Shown: positions 39,825 to 47,893 of the stretch, piece after piece
How positions within the stretch are numbered: position 1 is the stretch's first letter
How the letters are laid out: every line of letters starts with the position of its first letter
From: Candidatus Melainabacteria bacterium 17Bon1m
GTDB taxonomy: Bacteria > Cyanobacteriota > Vampirovibrionia > Obscuribacterales > Obscuribacteraceae
Assembly: GCA_032128875.1 (NCBI GenBank)
Contig: JAVLKG010000004.1
Location: 608,001 to 672,000 of the forward strand
Direction of reading: 5' to 3'
DNA: 64,000 nucleotides
Made by a program: the position numbers and the translations under genes
The notes under the pieces: generated by a model
What the model was told of the DNA's origin: nothing
Databases searched by the model: none
The model's input: the letters and a program-made list of their open reading frames with translations, nothing else

Positions 39825-42512
39825 GTGAAACGTCTCAAAGCCATCTCTTGTTCATTGCTTGCAGCATGTGCTCTTTTAACAGCGTTTCAACCCGGACAGG
39901 GGAAGGTGGCATCGCTTTCTCCGGCTGCTGATTCATTCCGTTTGCCGCGAAGCGTCACACCAGAGAGTTACGACCTTTTTATCGATCCGGACTTAGAGAA
40001 AGGAACGTTCAAAGGAACCGAAAACATCGTCCTTAATGCTGTTCAAACAGTAGACAGAATCTATTTGAACTCACATGGACTATCTATAGAAAGCGCCGAA
40101 CTTACCGCTGAAGGTGACAAAAGATCAGGCAAGTCGGCGGCTTCAGTGACTATCGCCAAAAGCGAGCAAGTGGTCACTTTCTTGCTTTCAAAACCTATTG
40201 AACCTGGTAAGTACACCCTTAAGATTTCCTATTCCGGCCGCATGAATGACAAACTCTGCGGCTTCTACAAAGTCAAAGCCAAGGACGGCGAAGGTCATAC
40301 CGTCACTTTAGGCGCCACTCAGATGGAACCGACGGACGCCCGTCGAATGTTTCCATGTTTTGACGAACCTGATTTCAAAGCTACTTTCAAACTGAAAGTC
40401 ACAGTCGATCAAGGCAACACGGCCATTTCGAACAGTGCCGTTTCTCGAGAAGTCAAACAAAAAGGTTCAAGCAAGAGAATTGTCGAGTTTGCACCGACAC
40501 CAAAAATGTCAACCTATCTTGTTGCGCTCTTGGTCGGACCGTTTTCCTCTACTCCTCCATTAGTCGCAAATTCCATACCTATTCGTGTATGGGCGGTTAA
40601 AGGCTCTGAAAAACTCGGGCTCTTCGCGCGCAACCAAGCGGCAAAGATGATGCCGTACTTTCTGAATTACTTCGCTCAACCATATGCCGGCAACAAGCTA
40701 GATTTGATAGCAATTCCAGAGTTCGAAGCTGGTGCGATGGAAAACTTGGGCGCAATTACCTTCAGAGAAGAAACACTTTTAGTCGACGAGAAGAGTGCCT
40801 CCGTTGCCGCTCAAAAGCGTGTTTCAGAGGTGGTAGCCCATGAAATGGCACACCTCTGGTTCGGCGATTTAGTGACTATGAAATGGTGGGACGATCTTTG
40901 GCTGAACGAGGCTTTCGCCACCTGGATGTCTGAAAAGACTGTCGATTATGTGCGCCCAGACTGGCAAACATGGGAGTTTTTCACATTTGATCGCCTTGGC
41001 GCAATGGAAATTGACGAGTTGATGTCGACTCGCTCCATACACGCTGAAGTCAAAAACCCACTCGAAGCAATAGAAATGTTTGACGGCATCACATACAGCA
41101 AAGGTGCTTCTATTCTGCGAATGCTGGAAATATATTTAGGCGAAAAGGTATTTCAAACCGGCGTGCAAAATTACATGCGCGAACACAAATTCGGCAACGC
41201 GACGACGAGCGATTTGTGGAATTCCCTACAAGCAGCCTCCCAAAAACCTGTCTCCGACATCATGTACGCCTGGGTTCATTCTCCTGGCTTTCCTGTTATC
41301 GATGCTCAAAGGAAGGAGAATGGAACTGCGATTCGCCTCGGACAATCGCGATTTGTAATGGACCCTGCTGCCAGGTTAAAACCGGCGAATGCAAACGCTC
41401 TTTGGGCAATACCGGTTTCCTGGCGTTTGCTGAAAACTGACCAGCCGGCTAATCAAAAGCTTAGTTTTCTTCTCTCTTCAAAGACGGCTCCGATGGTCGA
41501 TCTGCCAAAAGATCAAATACCACTTCTGAATGCCCAAGCATCAGGCTATTATCGGGTCAACTATCCAGAAACTTGGCTTCGCGGCCTACTTTCCGCCGGG
41601 TTGGACAAACTGAGTATTGCTGAGCGCATGACGCTTCTGTCCGATCAATGGACTCTAACGTTTGCAGGAATCTCACCACTCGCTAACTATTTCCAATTGT
41701 TCAACGAATACGAATCCCAAATGGATCCGCAGTTGATCGAGATGAGAGTAGAGTGCCTAGATCGACTTTACGGGCTGCTCGACGCGAAAAGTGTTCCAAG
41801 CTTCGAACGATTCGTGCGAAAGCATTTAAATGCAACGGCAACGAAATTTGGTTGGTCATCCAAACCAAATGAAAGCGATTTGATTCGCTCAGCCAGGGGT
41901 GATGTCCTTCTAGCCCTGGGCACGATAGGGCAGGATCCTGCGACGATTGCCGAAGCGCGCAAGCAGTTTAATGTCTATCTTGCGGATTCGAGGAAAGTAG
42001 AACCAGACCTGCTCGATCCAATTTTCAAAATTGTCGCCTTCAACGGCGACGCCAAAGACTATCAAAAGATGGACAACCTCTGGCGCACAGCCAAAACTCC
42101 TGAAGAACGCGTGCGAAGCATGATGTCCCTGCCGTTTTTCAGAAAGCCTGAACTTATCGATCGCACTTTAAAGTTCAGCATTGGAAATGAAATTCGCCTT
42201 CAAGACTCTCCGAAATTGTTGGGCAATATTCTCATAATGCCTCACGCAAAACAGCCGGGCTTCAAGTTTGTCAGAGAGAACTTTGCGCTTATCAAGAAAC
42301 ATCTGCCAATGCCGACGGTACCGCATGTGGTGTGCTCACTAGAATCCATTTGCACGCCACAAGAGGAGAAGGAATATATTCAATTCCTTGCTGCAAATCC
42401 GATTCCAGCGGGACGTAAGCGCATTCAACAAGCATTAGAAACAGTGCACAATCGGGTTAATTTCCGTAATCGTTCGAGTGCGGAATTAGACAAGATTCTG
42501 AGTGGTTTTTAG
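39825..42512 (+). CDS. Exported M1-family aminopeptidase with ERAP1-like C-terminal domain
   Basis: GAMEN, HEMAH-x18-E (WLNE), ARRMFPCFDEP, YSKG; signal peptide. Confidence 0.95.
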   Translation: MKRLKAISCSLLAACALLTAFQPGQGKVASLSPAADSFRLPRSVTPESYDLFIDPDLEKGTFKGTENIVLNAVQTVDRIYLNSHGLSIESAELTAEGDKRSGKSAASVTIAKSEQVVTFLLSKPIEPGKYTLKISYSGRMNDKLCGFYKVKAKDGEGHTVTLGATQMEPTDARRMFPCFDEPDFKATFKLKVTVDQGNTAISNSAVSREVKQKGSSKRIVEFAPTPKMSTYLVALLVGPFSSTPPLVANSIPIRVWAVKGSEKLGLFARNQAAKMMPYFLNYFAQPYAGNKLDLIAIPEFEAGAMENLGAITFREETLLVDEKSASVAAQKRVSEVVAHEMAHLWFGDLVTMKWWDDLWLNEAFATWMSEKTVDYVRPDWQTWEFFTFDRLGAMEIDELMSTRSIHAEVKNPLEAIEMFDGITYSKGASILRMLEIYLGEKVFQTGVQNYMREHKFGNATTSDLWNSLQAASQKPVSDIMYAWVHSPGFPVIDAQRKENGTAIRLGQSRFVMDPAARLKPANANALWAIPVSWRLLKTDQPANQKLSFLLSSKTAPMVDLPKDQIPLLNAQASGYYRVNYPETWLRGLLSAGLDKLSIAERMTLLSDQWTLTFAGISPLANYFQLFNEYESQMDPQLIEMRVECLDRLYGLLDAKSVPSFERFVRKHLNATATKFGWSSKPNESDLIRSARGDVLLALGTIGQDPATIAEARKQFNVYLADSRKVEPDLLDPIFKIVAFNGDAKDYQKMDNLWRTAKTPEERVRSMMSLPFFRKPELIDRTLKFSIGNEIRLQDSPKLLGNILIMPHAKQPGFKFVRENFALIKKHLPMPTVPHVVCSLESICTPQEEKEYIQFLAANPIPAGRKRIQQALETVHNRVNFRNRSSAELDKILSGF

Positions 42513-42597
42513 ATCATTGCGGCAAGAATGTAATCGTCAGTGCGAATTTGAAACATTTACTCGTGGCGTTCGGAAAGTGTTCCAAGACCATATAAAA

Positions 42598-42618
42598 AAG
42601 GCGGCAACCTGCCGCCTT
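42598..42618 (-). promoter_or_regulatory. SECIS-like hairpin / intrinsic terminator after paralog A
   Basis: AAGGCGGCA-GGT-TGCCGCCTT running into a T6 tract; starts 12 nt after the TGA. Confidence 0.6.
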
Positions 42619-42624
42619 GAAGAA

Positions 42625-43116
42625 CTAGTTTCAGCCACCGCCGCCGCCTCCACCGCCGCCGCCCCAACTGCGACCTCCAGTGGATAAACGCGCAAACAGA
42701 TTGCCTTGACCTGCATAAGTTCGACTGGCTGCGTATCTCTCAACCTGGCTATAGCCAACAGCAGCCAAATATTTCAGCTGCGGATCTTTTGAAAAGCTGG
42801 AGACGACCTGATAGTGCTGAGCGGCCTGAGCCAACTGATTCATATTGTGGAAGCAGTAGGCAATGTAATAGTGCGTTTTGTCTCGACAATATCCATTTCG
42901 ATCCAAGCGATCGAAAATCTCATAAGCATCCTTGTACTTCTTGTCATAGACGAGCCTAACCGCCTTATAAAACTCAGGTGGATAGGTTGCCGCCTTCGAT
43001 GATTTCTTTCCCTTTTTACCCTTAGCTTCGGCGTCATTACCGGAAGGCATGATTCCCTGACTTGCGACAACCACAAGCAACACTGCTGCATAGACAAGCG
43101 AACGATTCTGTTTCAT
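42625..43116 (-). CDS. Exported TPR-like protein with poly-Gly tail; candidate selenoprotein (TGA 42631-42633 read as Sec, stop TAG 42625-42627)
   Basis: Signal ending AEA; helical core paralogous to the neighbour; ends GGC-TGA-AAC-TAG. The CDS is well supported; the Sec reading is a hypothesis. Confidence 0.8.
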
Positions 43117-43158
43117 TGACTTTCCACTTCGGCAACTTGGTAGCGTTCACATTGAGCC

Positions 43159-43179
43159 CGGGCGGCAACCTGCTGCCCG
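43159..43179 (-). promoter_or_regulatory. SECIS-like hairpin after paralog B
   Basis: CGGGCAGCA-GGT-TGCCGCCCG, starts 14 nt after the TGA, no T-tract; 16/17 nt core identity to the 42598-42618 hairpin. Confidence 0.6.
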
Positions 43180-43187
43180 CAAATCAA

Positions 43188-43712
43188 CTACCGTCAGCCA
43201 CGTGGGCCGCAATCTGCGGCACTGGAGCCTCCCCCGCCCCATGGACCTGCTGCGTTGCTGGGTCCTGTAGACATTCGAGCAAAGAGATTTCCCTGCCCCG
43301 CATAAGTGCGATTCTTTGCGTATTTTGCTACCTGCCCATAACCGACTGCAGCTAGATATTTAAGCTGCGGGTCTTTGGAAAAGCTGTATACGACTTGATA
43401 GTGCTGTGCTGCTTCCTGCAGTTGATTCATGTTGTGTTTGCAAAGACCCATGTAATAGTGAGTCTTATCACGGCAAAAACCATTTCGGTCCAGGCGATCG
43501 AATATATCGAAGGCGTCCTTGTATTTCTTCTCGTAGACAACCAGCTTAATAGCGTCGTTGAACTCGGGCGGGTACGGAGGAAGCTTTTTTGCAGCCTGAG
43601 CCTTTCCTTTCTTCGCTTTGGCCTCTGCAATCTGCCCAAAAGGCGAAATGCCCTGATTGACGAAAAGAATCGTCAACATTCCAGCAAGAAGGGACAAATG
43701 ATTGGATTTCAC
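43188..43712 (-). CDS. Exported TPR-like protein with Gly-rich tail ending CGPRG; candidate selenoprotein (TGA 43194-43196 read as Sec, stop TAG 43188-43190)
   Basis: Signal ending AEA; YPPEF...IFDRLDRNGFCRDKTHYY...FSKDPQLKYLAAVGY...RTYAGQGNLFAR shared with paralog A; ends GGC-TGA-CGG-TAG. Confidence 0.8.
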
Positions 43713-43819
43713 GTTTTTGGGTGGCCCGAGCTACATCTACCATCTAAGCATATTGCCGAAAAGGGAGTGTTTGTAAACCCCCACCCCTTTCTTTTATTAA
43801 TGTCAGGTAACCTTCGAAA

Positions 43820-45067
43820 CTACTCCAAGATGTTCAGCAGTTCAAGGCAAAGGCTGTTCCAGCTCATGAACTGGGGCGCAAATAATGGTTCTCCCGTATC
43901 TGCGTGATAGTTCTCAAATAAGGTACCTTTCGCTTCAAGTCCGGTCGCTAGGGTGTTAACAACCAACTCTGCGACCTTTTGAGCATCTTTGTTGAACTTT
44001 TCGCGCACCAGCGCGCGAGCAATCAGGGCATTGGGCAAAACCCACATCGGTCCCTGCCAGTTAGAACAGATGACACGCCCATACAATCCGCGCTTTGCCT
44101 GATTGTACAAAGGCTCGGAAGCAGCAACACTTGCAATGCCCGCGCTTCTAAGGAAGTGATCGCTCGACATGATGTTCTTCTCGATTACGGCTTGAGTGCG
44201 TTCGTTATTAGTAGTCCCCATAATCACAGGACAGAGGCCAGTCCATGCTCTCAGACGGCAATGCTGCTTTGTTTTTGGATCATAGTTGTAATAGATTGAA
44301 TCTTCTTGCGACCAGAGCAACGAGTCTATTTTTTCAGCAAGAGCAGTCGCCTTGGCGTCATATTCGGCAGCCAATTTTTCGTTGCCGCCAATTTTTGCCA
44401 GCTCATTCATGGCTCGAAATTCTGCAACCAGATACGCATTTATGTCAGCTGCAAGCAGCCGTCCATCAGGGAAATTGGCGATGTCATCATTCTCGCCTTT
44501 GGCTGCTTCGAGTGGATAGAGCAGCGCCAGATTATCGTCTACACCGCTTTCCAAAACGTTTCGCCAGAAATACAATCCACTCTCGTGCTTGCGTTTTGCA
44601 TCGAAATATTTGAGATAACAATCCAACCCTTCCAAATGTCGATTGTCTATTGATGCAGATTTTGTACTCTGCTTTGCGGCAAAAAGGAGAGTCTGTGCAA
44701 GAAACGGTTTGCACTGGTCGCCGTTGTCCCAAATGCGACTGGGGGAAACAGTGCGCGGAACATGACCATCGCCTTCCTGAAGGCTGAGGAAGTTTTCCAC
44801 TACATCTTGAGCGAGCCCTTCTATACCGGCTTTCACAGATGCCTGTGCAAAAAAGCACGCGTCCCAGTCGTACATCTGCAAATAGTGACCGGTCAAAGAG
44901 CGATCGGAGACTTCACTCGAGTCATCAGCGCCCGCAACCACGTCATAAGATGGTGTCACAAAGCGATGTTTCAGCAAGCCTTTCGGATCATGAATACAGC
45001 TTTTAGCCTTTTCCAGAAAAAATCCCTTCAACTTTTTCGCTTGCGCTGTTGTCGAAGCTGTCGGCAT
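43820..45067 (-). CDS. (alpha/alpha)6 glycoside hydrolase, GH63/trehalase-like
   Basis: MYDWD, ESGVDD, NWQGPMW and FENY motifs. Confidence 0.8.
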   Translation of the reverse strand: MPTASTTAQAKKLKGFFLEKAKSCIHDPKGLLKHRFVTPSYDVVAGADDSSEVSDRSLTGHYLQMYDWDACFFAQASVKAGIEGLAQDVVENFLSLQEGDGHVPRTVSPSRIWDNGDQCKPFLAQTLLFAAKQSTKSASIDNRHLEGLDCYLKYFDAKRKHESGLYFWRNVLESGVDDNLALLYPLEAAKGENDDIANFPDGRLLAADINAYLVAEFRAMNELAKIGGNEKLAAEYDAKATALAEKIDSLLWSQEDSIYYNYDPKTKQHCRLRAWTGLCPVIMGTTNNERTQAVIEKNIMSSDHFLRSAGIASVAASEPLYNQAKRGLYGRVICSNWQGPMWVLPNALIARALVREKFNKDAQKVAELVVNTLATGLEAKGTLFENYHADTGEPLFAPQFMSWNSLCLELLNILE

Positions 45068-45088: not shown

Positions 45089-47893
45089 TTAGCCCGTGCT
45101 TTGCAGTCCTGAAGCCACACCGGTAATGCTCATTAGCACGTAATCTAACAGTGCTTGACGGTCGCAAACATCGGATTTAGCGTCGATTCCTCTGACCTTC
45201 TTCAAAAATTGAACTTGCAGGTAGCTAACCGGATCTACATATGGATTACGCAACTCAATAGACTTTCTTAGATAGAGCGTACTGTCCAGAAGTTCCGACT
45301 GTCTTGAAATTGAAAGGATAGCCTCGCGTGTCCAACTGAATTCTTCTTCAATGCGGCTGAAATACTCATCTTTCAACTTCTTAGACTCAACGAGATTGTC
45401 TGCGTAGTACCGCGCGATTTCAAGGTCGGCTACGGCAAGCGCAGTTTCGATTTTCTTTACTAACCCAGTGAAGAATGGCCAGTCCGAATACATCGCGCGC
45501 ATTGTTTCTAACGCCGCAGGATCACCTTCGGTTACTTGATGATAGGCCGAGCCAAACCCGTACCAGCCAGGCAGCATGAATCGACTTTGTGTCCAGGCAA
45601 AAACCCAAGGAATCGCGCGCAAATCGTCAATTGATTGGCTGCCGGACTTTCTACGTGCTGGACGCGAGCCCATTCGCAACTCTCCAATTTCCGGCAACGG
45701 TGTTGTCTGGTGGAAGAATTCGATGAAATCCTTCGAGCCGTGAACGAGTTCTCTATAGGCTGTAAACGACTTTGCCGAAAGCGACTCCAGAAGTGGCATA
45801 CGCTCTTTGTAAATCGATTCGGATTTCTCGTCAAAACTATCAATACTCGCTTCGATTACTGCAGCAGCCAGCCGGTCGAAGTTTCTCACGGCAATATCAT
45901 TCATCGCGTACTTCGCAGCGATTACTTCGCCCTGCTCAGTTATCTTGATGCGATGATCGACAGTGCCCTCTGGTTGAGCAAGAATGGCTCTGTGAGTAGG
46001 TCCGCCACCACGTCCGATGGTGCCGCCTCGACCATGAAAAAGTCGAAGCTGAATGCCTTCCTTGCGCCCGAATTGAACAAGTGCTCGCTGCGCTTTATAC
46101 AATTCCCAATTCGCAGCCGTAATTCCGCCATTTTTGCCGGAGTCGCTGTACCCAATCATCACTTCCTGAAGATTGGATCTGCTCTTCAAATAATTCTTGT
46201 ATGCGCCAACTTGCAACAGTGCTTCGAACAGCTTCGGTGCGTTCTGCAAGTCTTCGATTGTTTCAAACAGCGGCACCACACTTATCGTGCGATCGCTTTT
46301 TTCCACACTGTACAACCCTGCTTCCTTTGCAAAAAGAAGGATCGCAAGCAAATCACTTTTGCTCTGCGTCATGCTGACTATATAAGTATCAATCGCAGGA
46401 ATGCCAAATTTGTCCTGGAGCGCAGTCATCGTGCGAAAAACTTCGATCGTTTGATTTGTCGACTCGGAAAACTGAGGATGAGCCGGAATTAGAGGTCGGG
46501 GATTTTCGATTTCTTTGGCAAGGAAAGAAACTTTCTCGTCCTCGCTCAGCCCGCGATAGCCGCCTTCAATCAGCTTCAGCGATTTACTGATTTCGTCGAG
46601 GGCATCAAGATGTCGCTCACTGTGCTGGCGTACGTCGAGTTTTGCCAGGTGAAATCCGAAGATATCGACTGCATAAAGCATCTTCTTTAGGCTCGTCAAA
46701 CTAGCAATGCAGCCGTTCGACTCCAGCGCGCCATAAATCATATTGAGTTCACTGCGAAACTCTAAATGGTGCTGATATGCTCCAGGTTCGCCGGATGAAT
46801 TCAAAGCACGACGCAATTTCTCTTGTATAAAGAGCAGCTTCTGTCGGACTTCCTCGAGACGATAGCGATCTCTGTACCTTTCATCAAGCTCTGGGAATAG
46901 AACGCGGTCTTGCTCGAGCGACGCATAGAACTCGTCGTCCATTTTGAGCCAATTTTGTGAGTGGCTCAAGTCGTTGAAGAGCGTTTCCATCTCTTTCATG
47001 TAATGCTTAAGAACCAGCGAGCGCTGGTAATTAAGTGTCTTTACCGTCACTTCCGGAGTGACGAAAGGATTGCCGTCACGGTCGCCGCCGATCCAAGAGC
47101 CAAATGTTATGAACCGCCGACTCTGTAGCGGATTCCACTTTTGCTCACCGGACAATTTGTCCAACTCCAAAACAAGGTCGTGGTGAACATCAAGAATCGC
47201 GCGAATAACAACATTCTCGAAGTGATAGAGCCCATAGCGAACTTCATCCATCACCTGAGGCTTGAAATAAATGACGTGGTCGGTCATCCATAACGATTCG
47301 ATGACCTTTAACAAATCGTCCGTAACAGCTTTCGTTTCTCGACGCGAAAGAGGTGGATGATCACGTCGCTTCAGAAGCCTCGCCAATTCAAGCTGTTTGA
47401 TTAAAACCGTTCGCCGGGTAATTTCAGTTGGGTGAGCAGTGAAAACAACTTGCACGTCCAGTTTGGAAATCGCTTGCTGCAGCTTCTCTTTTCCGTCTTT
47501 GCTGTTTTCCATCCGGTGAAAAACGCTTGTTAGCGAATCAGGCTCGGGACGGTCGTTTGCTTCATGCTCTCTTTGGGTGCGGCGACGCACGCGATGATTT
47601 TGCTCGGCGATGTTGATGAGATCAAAATACGTAAGAAAAGCTTTGATAACCTTTCCAGACGTTTCAACATCAAGACTTTCTACAAGCTCCGACAACTCTT
47701 TTTGTATTTCCGGCGTCGGATTGTTGTGTATTGATTTCGACAGCAGCCTGAATCGCTCGACTACATCAAAGAGCTTGTCGCCTTCGAAACGCCGAATTGT
47801 GTCGCCTAGTAAACTGCCGAGCAGGCGAACATCTTCACGCAGCGGACGATCACGGTCGTCGGTCTTTTCTTTGCTAACGCTAGATGAGCTCAT
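45089..47893 (-). CDS. ppc: Phosphoenolpyruvate carboxylase
   Basis: VFTAHPTE, SWIGGDRDGNP, QEVMIGYSDSGK, FHGRGGTIGRGGGP, TEQGE, LRAIPWVFAWTQ. Confidence 0.97.
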   Translation of the reverse strand: MSSSSVSKEKTDDRDRPLREDVRLLGSLLGDTIRRFEGDKLFDVVERFRLLSKSIHNNPTPEIQKELSELVESLDVETSGKVIKAFLTYFDLINIAEQNHRVRRRTQREHEANDRPEPDSLTSVFHRMENSKDGKEKLQQAISKLDVQVVFTAHPTEITRRTVLIKQLELARLLKRRDHPPLSRRETKAVTDDLLKVIESLWMTDHVIYFKPQVMDEVRYGLYHFENVVIRAILDVHHDLVLELDKLSGEQKWNPLQSRRFITFGSWIGGDRDGNPFVTPEVTVKTLNYQRSLVLKHYMKEMETLFNDLSHSQNWLKMDDEFYASLEQDRVLFPELDERYRDRYRLEEVRQKLLFIQEKLRRALNSSGEPGAYQHHLEFRSELNMIYGALESNGCIASLTSLKKMLYAVDIFGFHLAKLDVRQHSERHLDALDEISKSLKLIEGGYRGLSEDEKVSFLAKEIENPRPLIPAHPQFSESTNQTIEVFRTMTALQDKFGIPAIDTYIVSMTQSKSDLLAILLFAKEAGLYSVEKSDRTISVVPLFETIEDLQNAPKLFEALLQVGAYKNYLKSRSNLQEVMIGYSDSGKNGGITAANWELYKAQRALVQFGRKEGIQLRLFHGRGGTIGRGGGPTHRAILAQPEGTVDHRIKITEQGEVIAAKYAMNDIAVRNFDRLAAAVIEASIDSFDEKSESIYKERMPLLESLSAKSFTAYRELVHGSKDFIEFFHQTTPLPEIGELRMGSRPARRKSGSQSIDDLRAIPWVFAWTQSRFMLPGWYGFGSAYHQVTEGDPAALETMRAMYSDWPFFTGLVKKIETALAVADLEIARYYADNLVESKKLKDEYFSRIEEEFSWTREAILSISRQSELLDSTLYLRKSIELRNPYVDPVSYLQVQFLKKVRGIDAKSDVCDRQALLDYVLMSITGVASGLQSTG

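Follow-up and report, generated by a model that had tools for sequence, protein, structure and literature searches.

Two tandem neighbouring genes on the minus strand of the window (the 64,000 nucleotides analysed here, contig C4:608001-672000 of the 7.55-Mb assembly of Candidatus Melainabacteria bacterium 17Bon1m, which comprises 35 contigs and is 93% complete), termed paralogs A and B, are read here as selenoprotein genes, in which a TGA would be decoded as selenocysteine (Sec, U) near the C-terminus and the true stop codon would follow one residue later. On the sequence data, the probability of this reading is put at roughly 0.86. We infer Sec insertion from gene structure and its conservation, from a conserved RNA fold, from the occurrence of the genes together with Sec machinery and from cysteine (Cys) homologs. 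The features by which the field recognizes a selenoprotein gene are found together in this family: Sec machinery in the genome, a conserved TGA, coding conservation past it, a selenocysteine insertion sequence (SECIS) at the right distance with covariation in its stem, and Sec/Cys pairs among the homologs. A preliminary description of the window had proposed the same reading, with the termini G-U-N and G-U-R, and had named three observations that would speak against it, namely a genome devoid of Sec machinery, homologs that freely use TAA or TAG at the TGA position and have no Cys variants, and the same hairpin behind unrelated genes ending in TAA or TAG; none of the three was made, and the reading is supported. 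The elements concerned are the following.

43712..43194, minus strand: paralog A in the table 11 reading, 172 aa
43188..43712, minus strand: paralog A, re-read coding sequence, GTG start at 43712, 174 aa, end ..AADCGPRG-U-R
43178..43160, minus strand: SECIS-like hairpin A, GGGCAGCA-GGU-UGCCGCCC, one A.C mismatch
43116..42631, minus strand: paralog B in the table 11 reading, 161 aa
42625..43116, minus strand: paralog B, re-read coding sequence, ATG start at 43116, 163 aa, end ..GGGGGGGG-U-N
42592..42618, minus strand: SECIS-like hairpin B, AAGGCGGCA-GGU-UGCCGCCUU at 42618-42598 and a T-run at 42597-42592

Both genes share the end layout Gly-TGA-(one codon)-TAG, followed by a hairpin with a GGU loop. 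Paralog A reads ..DCGPRG, TGA (43196-43194), CGG (Arg), TAG (43190-43188), TT, and paralog B reads ..GGGGGGGG, TGA (42633-42631), AAC (Asn), TAG (42627-42625), TT; on re-reading of the coordinates, the arrangement GGC-TGA-codon-TAG-TT given earlier for both genes is correct. The Gly-TGA-X-TAG pattern exceeds chance, because TGA is the least used stop codon of the host genome, ending 25.4% of 3546 open frames of at least 300 codons, and because a second in-frame stop lies one or two sense codons past the TGA in only 7.9% of the TGA-ended frames. TGA has undergone no general reassignment in this genome. The public gene calls for family members all end at the TGA, and among 29 complete-looking close homologs in a second protein database, 26 end at the Gly before the TGA, one in RR and two in W, the latter two belonging to a third-paralog clade. 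The members of this clade, from the same genus (L032, G002 contig C109; P0027, P0029), have ordinary-stop ends (..SCNGRNW-TAA, in L032 ..GGGSCNGRNW-TAA; ..NTCGW; ..NSYGW), with a Cys near the end in two of the three.

Conservation of the TGA and co-occurrence with Sec machinery

A protein search of 60 relatives returned homologs in 31 of the 36 genomes of the same family and only weak tetratricopeptide repeat (TPR) matches elsewhere. Gene ends (50 in all, among 104 family genomes) were read on the DNA in two batches, the first consisting of 30 TGA-ended genes, one third-paralog gene and five weak matches that are other TPR proteins, and the second of 20 loci from other genera located by a profile search of the 104 family genomes (18 TGA forms, one thioredoxin fusion and one Cys form). 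The first stop is TGA in all 48 TGA-form genes, which derive from 42 genomes and 22 genera, and Cys variants exist among the homologs. The residue before the TGA is Gly in 39 of these genes, Ser in 4, Thr in 2, Cys in 2 and Ala in 1; one sense codon separates the TGA from the second stop in 23, two in 17, three in 4, four in 2 and five in 2; and the second stop itself is TAG (22), TAA (16) or TGA (10). Among the homologs, divergence has affected the flanks, sense codons and second stop and has spared the TGA. Furthermore, the codons past the TGA look translated, because they change synonymously: in the A-type orthologs the codon is Arg as CGG, CGA, CGT or CGC, and once CAG, in the B-type orthologs it is Asn as AAC or AAT, and in other genera Arg-Arg is written in six different codon pairs and Gly-Gly is also synonymously variable.

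The family profile matches 99 of the 104 genomes (34 of 37 genera) of the Obscuribacteraceae-type family at E <= 1e-12, fusion forms included, and none of 300 other sampled genomes of the phylum at E <= 1e-15. The named holders of close homologs (seven loci in metagenome-assembled genomes, MAGs) are labelled Candidatus Melainabacteria, Obscuribacterales or Obscuribacteraceae, and the metagenomes that hold the locus include drinking-water, aquifer and plankton habitats.

The products of selA, selB, selC and selD, whose presence the preliminary description had made a check on its reading, are all found in the host genome. SelA (430 bits), SelB (286 bits) and SelD (370 bits) score above their curated cut-offs, and tRNA-Sec scores 67.5 bits against a cut-off of 47 and is reported by ARAGORN as SeC(tca). 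SelA is found in 83 of the 104 family genomes. In five genomes that have no SelA (G016, G024, G029, G036 and G085), there is no tRNA-Sec above the cut-off and no TGA form was found; the family profile finds only long fusion-type frames in them, with the exception of one frame in G024. This frame, of 152 codons, is a Cys form that ends ..GWQRCQPN-TAG and, as read on the DNA, has no hairpin.

Cys forms are also present in a profile search of 1.84 billion representative proteins, which gave 369 matches at E <= 1e-10. Most of the tails among these matches end at Gly, as expected for calls cut at the TGA, and others are of Cys type (..RGCH, ..RRGCH, ..TAGCH, ..GGCQ, ..VCGRH, ..SCGRR and ..GGCGHRRSR). 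When eight Cys-terminal homologs are aligned with four Sec forms, the Sec column is invariant Cys/Sec.

No Molybdop_Fe4S4 (formate-dehydrogenase-type) domain is found in the 93%-complete host genome, and the usual main bacterial selenoprotein thus seems to be missing from it. Because of this absence, the Sec trait in the host family may be kept by the paralog family together with SelW-like and TPR-thioredoxin(Sec) proteins, both described below.

The hairpin behind the TGA

The 17-nt cores of hairpins A and B differ at one position of 17, and their apex is GCAGGUUGC. Counted from the T of the TGA, the first G of the loop is at 24 nt in B and 26 nt in A, which corresponds to 21 and 23 nt after the TGA. 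These values reproduce the identity of 16/17 nt and the loop distance of 21-23 nt in the preliminary description, which had also placed the hairpins 12-14 nt after the TGA; the GGC(G/A)GC core in fact starts at 14 nt (B) and 16 nt (A), and 12 nt is obtained for B only when its two outer A-U pairs are included. Hairpin B folds with -23.6 kcal/mol (z = -3.2 against shuffled sequence). Hairpin A has no T-run after it, and paralog B begins some 45 nt further downstream.

Bacterial SECIS elements are sought, in searches of the bSECISearch type, as a stem-loop just 3' of the UGA with a conserved apical G(G)U at a fixed distance, and the family hairpins have this form. In an alignment of 30 hairpins (six of them centred by hand), 86.9% of the cells of the 9-bp stem on which pairs were counted are paired, and compensatory changes occur in all nine pairs. 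The covariation score is 0.453, compared with 0.187 for shuffles (none of 500 reaches 0.453) and 0.095-0.158 when the partners are slid. The first G of the loop is invariant and the second nearly so. In 39 of the 48 genes, 20-26 nt separate the U of the UGA from the GG of the loop, whereas relative to the second stop the stem begins anywhere between -9 nt, within the last codons, and +10 nt; since the one distance is kept and the other varies, the hairpin is placed relative to the UGA and not to the true stop. A T-rich stretch (at least 5 T in 9 nt) follows the hairpin in only 12 of the 48 genes and is absent from 36. As hairpin B matches the terminator pattern, hairpin A does not, and so few of the hairpins are followed by T-rich sequence, a terminator role is optional and is not what the family conserves. 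A terminator would need a T-run and neither a conserved loop nor a fixed upstream distance; the properties of the hairpin are those of a bacterial SECIS.

Hairpins with a CAGGTTG core number 31 in the host genome, and only two of them stand behind a TGA with a sensible frame, those of paralog B and of a SelW-like gene, so that the same hairpin was not found to follow unrelated genes ending in TAA or TAG. One such hairpin that seemingly follows a 288-aa TAG-ended frame (contig C5, near 126440) lies antisense within a gene of at least 426 aa and was rejected. Two broad genome-wide scans for mini-SECIS elements, with 164 and 275 candidates that were nearly all noise, were dropped.

The SelW-like gene provides a positive control within the same genome.

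Contig C3:460599-460937 (locus L052:97-438), minus strand: SelW-like (Rdx) selenoprotein, PF10262, with in-frame TGA

The SelW-like protein reads MAKRFKITYCGA-U-GYQ.., with a CGA-U motif, and its match to PF10262 (68.8 bits) spans the Sec position. Its SECIS, GCUGUC-AGGUU-GGCAGC, has the GG 25 nt from the U of the UGA, compared with 24 and 26 nt in the paralogs. Orthologs of the SelW-like gene in 24 relatives keep both the TGA and the hairpin, and the loop variants GGC and GUU occur in the SelW set as well as in the candidate set. TGC orthologs read on the DNA (G030 and G032, both with SelA) have no hairpin, and no in-frame stop interrupts the orthologs in G029 and G036, two genomes without SelA. 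A covariance model built from the 30 candidate hairpins only, and run unfiltered over 95.9 kb of SelW loci, matches the SECIS position in 23 of the 24 TGA-type loci and gives no match at that position in the four Cys-type loci. The SelW-like gene thus shares with the paralogs the Sec machinery of the host genome, the apical C-AGGUU-G and the distance from UGA to GG. The proteins differ in other respects: in the SelW-like protein, Sec lies near the N-terminus in a CxxU motif, the SECIS is translated, and the product is cytoplasmic with a thioredoxin-like fold, whereas in the paralog family Sec would lie at the C-terminal tip of a TPR protein and the SECIS would be untranslated.

Points against the reading and competing explanations

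A number of observations weigh against Sec insertion in the paralogs or against the role proposed for it. With respect to the RNA, hairpin A carries an A.C mismatch and its 61-nt fold is no better than those of shuffles (z = 0.24), hairpin B fits a simple intrinsic terminator pattern (a GC-rich hairpin with a direct T-run), and no Rfam family matches the hairpins. A strict perfect-stem finder gives no stem of at least 5 bp in 3 of the 48 genes (G008 A, G034 and G027); in ViennaRNA minimum-free-energy folds, a stem centred on GGU, imperfect or short, is present in G008 A and a weaker one in G034, and the short AGCAGGUUGCU stem of G027 is seen in the sequence and a 4-pair count only, not in the minimum-free-energy fold. 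The covariance-model matches to the SelW loci are individually weak (E 0.006 to 9), as expected for 27 positions, and their weight is in where they fall and not in single E-values. The coding stretch past the TGA extends over only one to five codons, so that the downstream signal is thin, and the genomes are relatives, so that the counts are not independent events. In the alignment of Sec and Cys forms, Sec was written as C, which biases the aligner toward pairing it with Cys. Several genomes with TGA forms, all incomplete MAGs, give no SelA match; four of them are close relatives that all carry tRNA-Sec, SelB and SelD, and because these are present, the SelA misses in the four are most likely due to incomplete assembly. 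Three runs filed as RNA-Seq (searched with window positions 42000-44400), in which the locus sits on contigs of 13-124 kb at flat depth, appear to contain genomic DNA of this organism, and hence speak for the presence of the locus and not for its transcription. Finally, no conserved redox partner gene is found among the neighbours of family genes across genera, and a redox role is suggested by domain-fusion logic and motifs only.

Some of these observations would be accommodated if the TGA were a real stop, with the second stop backing up a leaky UGA and the hairpin an inherited terminator or an mRNA-stability element. The terminator pattern of hairpin B, the T-rich sequence behind 12 of the hairpins, the public gene calls and the unremarkable fold of hairpin A are all in keeping with ordinary termination. 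It would not explain, however, why the least used stop codon of the genome is retained in every one of the 48 genes across 22 genera and the second stop changes freely, why the codons between the stops vary synonymously, or why the loop GGU is conserved although a terminator needs none. Moreover, no T-run follows 36 of the 48 hairpins, the hairpin keeps its distance from the TGA to the point of overlapping the last codons, it matches the SECIS of the SelW-like gene, and genomes that have no Sec machinery do not show the layout, a hairpin-less Cys form ending in TAG taking its place in one of them. In view of these features, ordinary termination is considered improbable. Even more remote is a reading in which the UGA is read through by a near-cognate Trp or Cys tRNA with help from the downstream hairpin. 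Downstream structures can stimulate stop-codon read-through in other systems, and the inserted residue is not given directly by sequence data, but the loop and spacing of the hairpin are those of bona fide SECIS elements of the same genomes, the five family genomes without tRNA-Sec and SelA yielded no TGA form, and the homologs carry Cys, not Trp, at the TGA position.

It is also conceivable, although rather unlikely, that Sec is inserted and that the tail serves as a metal or metalloid ligand or as a selenium carrier on a Gly- or His-rich arm, and not as a redox catalyst. Sec in the C-terminal 'UXX-star' families may be a metal ligand, according to the accessible text of a recent review (PMC13188914). 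Within the paralog family, some members have His-rich tails (..GGGGHHHH, ..HGHGRHH and ..SHHHSHH in P0087, P0094 and P0124, where the gene call ends), and in 35 of the 48 tails no Cys is near enough for the resolution of a selenenylsulfide. Against a ligand function, sister proteins combine this TPR module with a thioredoxin domain of WCGPC or WUGPC type, tails of the CxxxxU and C-U types recur, and no metal transporter or resistance gene is found as a conserved neighbour of family genes. Selenocysteine insertion at the TGA, with thiol/selenol chemistry as the likeliest role, remains the favoured reading, and its consequences at the protein level are considered below.

Protein architecture, known systems and meaning

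An AlphaFold (AF2) model built from a 22-row alignment shows a hydrophobic helix (residues 5-18), a disordered Lys-rich linker, a five-helix bundle (residues 49-134, pLDDT >90) and a disordered tail from about residue 140. The N-terminal helix is predicted to be a signal peptide, and the product would be exported. The model has the signal helix, TPR-like scaffold and flexible tail that the preliminary description had anticipated. Pfam matches of the paralogs to TPR_1, TPR_2, TPR_6 and ANAPC3 (E 0.01-0.5) are below cut-off, no thioredoxin-family Pfam match is found in either paralog, and a search of NCBIfam release 20.0 with the two re-read proteins (hmmscan) gives only weak TPR-type matches far below cut-off. 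The best Foldseek matches for the model are generic TPR domains (YbgF, Tah1, SycD/IpgC), none at E <= 0.001. Invariant in the 22-row alignment are an HYY motif, Q97, A101 and the domain-closing R-T-Y-x-G-x-G, and 19 of the 22 sequences retain the Cys of the GLC(Y/K) helix. The core Cys of NG(Y/F)CRD, previously put forward as a conserved partner of Sec, does not hold as such, because the segment is deleted in several of the 22 sequences, and with its loss in distant members the residue is ruled out as a general partner.

The tails are of several types: poly-Gly followed by U; CGPxG-U, GCGSFG-U and DCPPSG-U, in which Cys and Sec form a CxxxxU motif; and ..RC-U-GR and ..GC-U-H, in which they are vicinal. 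The CxxxxU tail that had been pointed out for the window recurs in several genera (as DCGPxG-U, GCGSFG-U and DCPPSG-U), and a Cys lies within eight residues before Sec in 13 of the 48 genes.

In sister proteins, the signal peptide and TPR module of the family precede a linker and then a thioredoxin domain, the motif of which is WCGPC, WCHVC or WCSWC. Some of the gene calls for such fusions end ..EFYTDW, exactly where the thioredoxin motif would start with a TGA, and one fusion in the host genome is read through it.

Contig C2, locus L085:497-1159, minus strand: TPR-thioredoxin fusion, 220 aa, ..YEFYADW-U-GPCKKF.., PF00085 at 69 bits across the Sec position

A gene of G012 (L051) has the same layout and downstream sequence as this W-U-G-P-C fusion, the SECIS of which looks unlike the GGU-loop type. 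The fusions and the short forms have in common a homologous signal peptide and TPR-like module (by profile matches), a redox-type Cys/Sec motif after a flexible linker and, in the host genome, the use of Sec; they differ in that the fusions have a full thioredoxin fold, whereas the short forms have a bare Gly-rich tail of about 10-40 residues ending in Sec. On sequence evidence, the TPR module thus appears to be a general exported scaffold in this lineage that has been joined at least twice to selenol/thiol redox chemistry. Other exported TPR-like modules are fused to a degenerate thioredoxin-like region without CxxC (contig C10, L084:1150-1956, plus strand) and to two retropepsin-type aspartyl-protease domains (contig C1, L086:258-1538, minus strand).

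In the window, paralog B is convergent with an M1 aminopeptidase N (39825-42512, plus strand), a gene that also adjoins the family gene in genus g4 (L034). On the other side lie an MGH1-like glycoside hydrolase (43820-45067, minus strand) and a frame of 934 aa (45089-47893, minus strand) that we take, by eye, to resemble PEP carboxylase. Gene neighbours vary among genera, with two exceptions: aminopeptidase N, which recurs in the closest genera, and, in one sub-clade (L043:3-1289, plus; L044:1975-3369, minus; L045:2-1288, plus), a gene directly upstream on the same strand that encodes a GCV_T_C barrel and TPR protein of about 430-460 aa. Among the neighbours of family genes, no metal transporter or resistance gene is conserved.

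Mammalian thioredoxin reductase has a C-terminal Gly-Cys-Sec-Gly arm, and SELENOK and SELENOS carry a near-terminal Sec on their tails. The paralog family resembles these proteins in the penultimate or near-terminal Sec on a flexible Gly-rich tail and, in the members ending G-C-U-H or R-C-U-G-R, in the vicinal Cys-Sec pair. There is no homology, the scaffold is a flavoenzyme or a membrane protein in the one case and a TPR protein in the other, and compartment and SECIS type also differ, so that the likeness is a functional analogy at most. The preliminary description had suggested, besides SELENOK and SELENOS, a possible parallel to FrnE-type oxidoreductases.

Bacterial selenoproteins with a C-terminal Sec are already known. 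A 2026 review counts 119 prokaryotic selenoprotein families or subfamilies, among which 'UXX-star' 1, 'UXX-star' 2, 'HUGP/GUXX-star', 'KCU-star' and SaoC have a C-terminal Sec; no TPR protein is among the families listed in its accessible text, where 'TPR' and 'tetratricopeptide' occur 0 times (PMC13188914). As in the paralogs, Sec lies within the last two to four residues in 'UXX-star' 1 (NF041114), 'UXX-star' 2 (NF041211, GxGU), 'HUGP/GUXX-star' (NF041212) and 'KCU-star' (NF033934), often after Gly, so that the SECIS must sit at or past the true stop and automatic annotation cuts the protein at the TGA. These families have no sequence relationship to the paralogs, from which they are set apart by NCBIfam models and the table of the review only, and none of the four models is matched by the paralogs at E up to 1, a range in which HMMER filters can drop matches above about 0.1. 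The nine new families of deep-Sep include no TPR protein in the text available (PMC12013277). A literature search returned no paper on selenoproteins in Melainabacteria or Obscuribacter, and, among the papers listed, none of relevance on Sec-containing TPR proteins with a SECIS. The paralog family is thus absent from the lists checked, and the supplements of Haft & Tolstoy 2025 and Haft & Gwadz 2023 may bear on its novelty.

That a SECIS can work from past the stop is shown by an engineered case, in which, as far as the accessible text describes it, the penultimate Sec498 (Sec498-Gly499) of rat TrxR1 is inserted in E. coli with the help of an E. coli-type SECIS of 17 nt, the apex of which is GCAGGUCUGC (PMC3834832). 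This apex is near-identical to GCAGGUUGC of the paralogs. In the paralog family, a ribosome that reaches the UGA would meet SelB and Sec-tRNA(Sec) held by the GGU-loop hairpin, the base of which lies about 12-19 nt downstream; Sec would be inserted, one to five more residues would be added and termination would occur at the second stop, which leaves the SECIS almost wholly in the 3' untranslated region. Hairpin B probably doubles as a transcription terminator. Where Sec insertion fails, termination at the UGA would give a product only two residues shorter in the case of paralogs A and B. The exported product would be a compact five-helix TPR-like domain with a disordered Gly-rich tail and a selenol at its tip, usually as G-U-X, with a Cys in many members that adjoins Sec (C-U) or precedes it by five residues (CxxxxU). 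Since the sister proteins join this TPR module to a thioredoxin domain, thiol/selenol redox chemistry outside the cytoplasm is the likeliest role, at about even odds; a partner or substrate would be held by the TPR domain, with the mobile tail as redox arm.

The unusual features of the family are the exported TPR scaffold, the untranslated SECIS able to double as a terminator, and the tandem copies. If confirmed, it would be a new selenoprotein family and a new type of scaffold (TPR) beside the approximately 119 prokaryotic families, in non-photosynthetic Melainabacteria, and the public gene calls for its members appear to be two to six residues short, cut at the residue that matters. It would also provide a natural case of a bacterial SECIS acting from the 3' untranslated region, for which the known examples are mostly engineered constructs, and of a single hairpin serving both Sec insertion and transcription termination, and the short tail motifs (G-U-R, C-U-H and CGPxG-U) could serve as compact selenol tags in protein engineering. 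For the organism, a wider picture may be drawn tentatively, at somewhat less than even odds: the Sec machinery would be kept largely for exported TPR proteins in which the selenol tail is the only catalytic element, the post-stop SECIS would double as a terminator, and the selenium supply would set the balance between an active form and an inactive one two residues shorter, in what would amount to an extracytoplasmic analogue of the thioredoxin-reductase and SELENOK/S arm.

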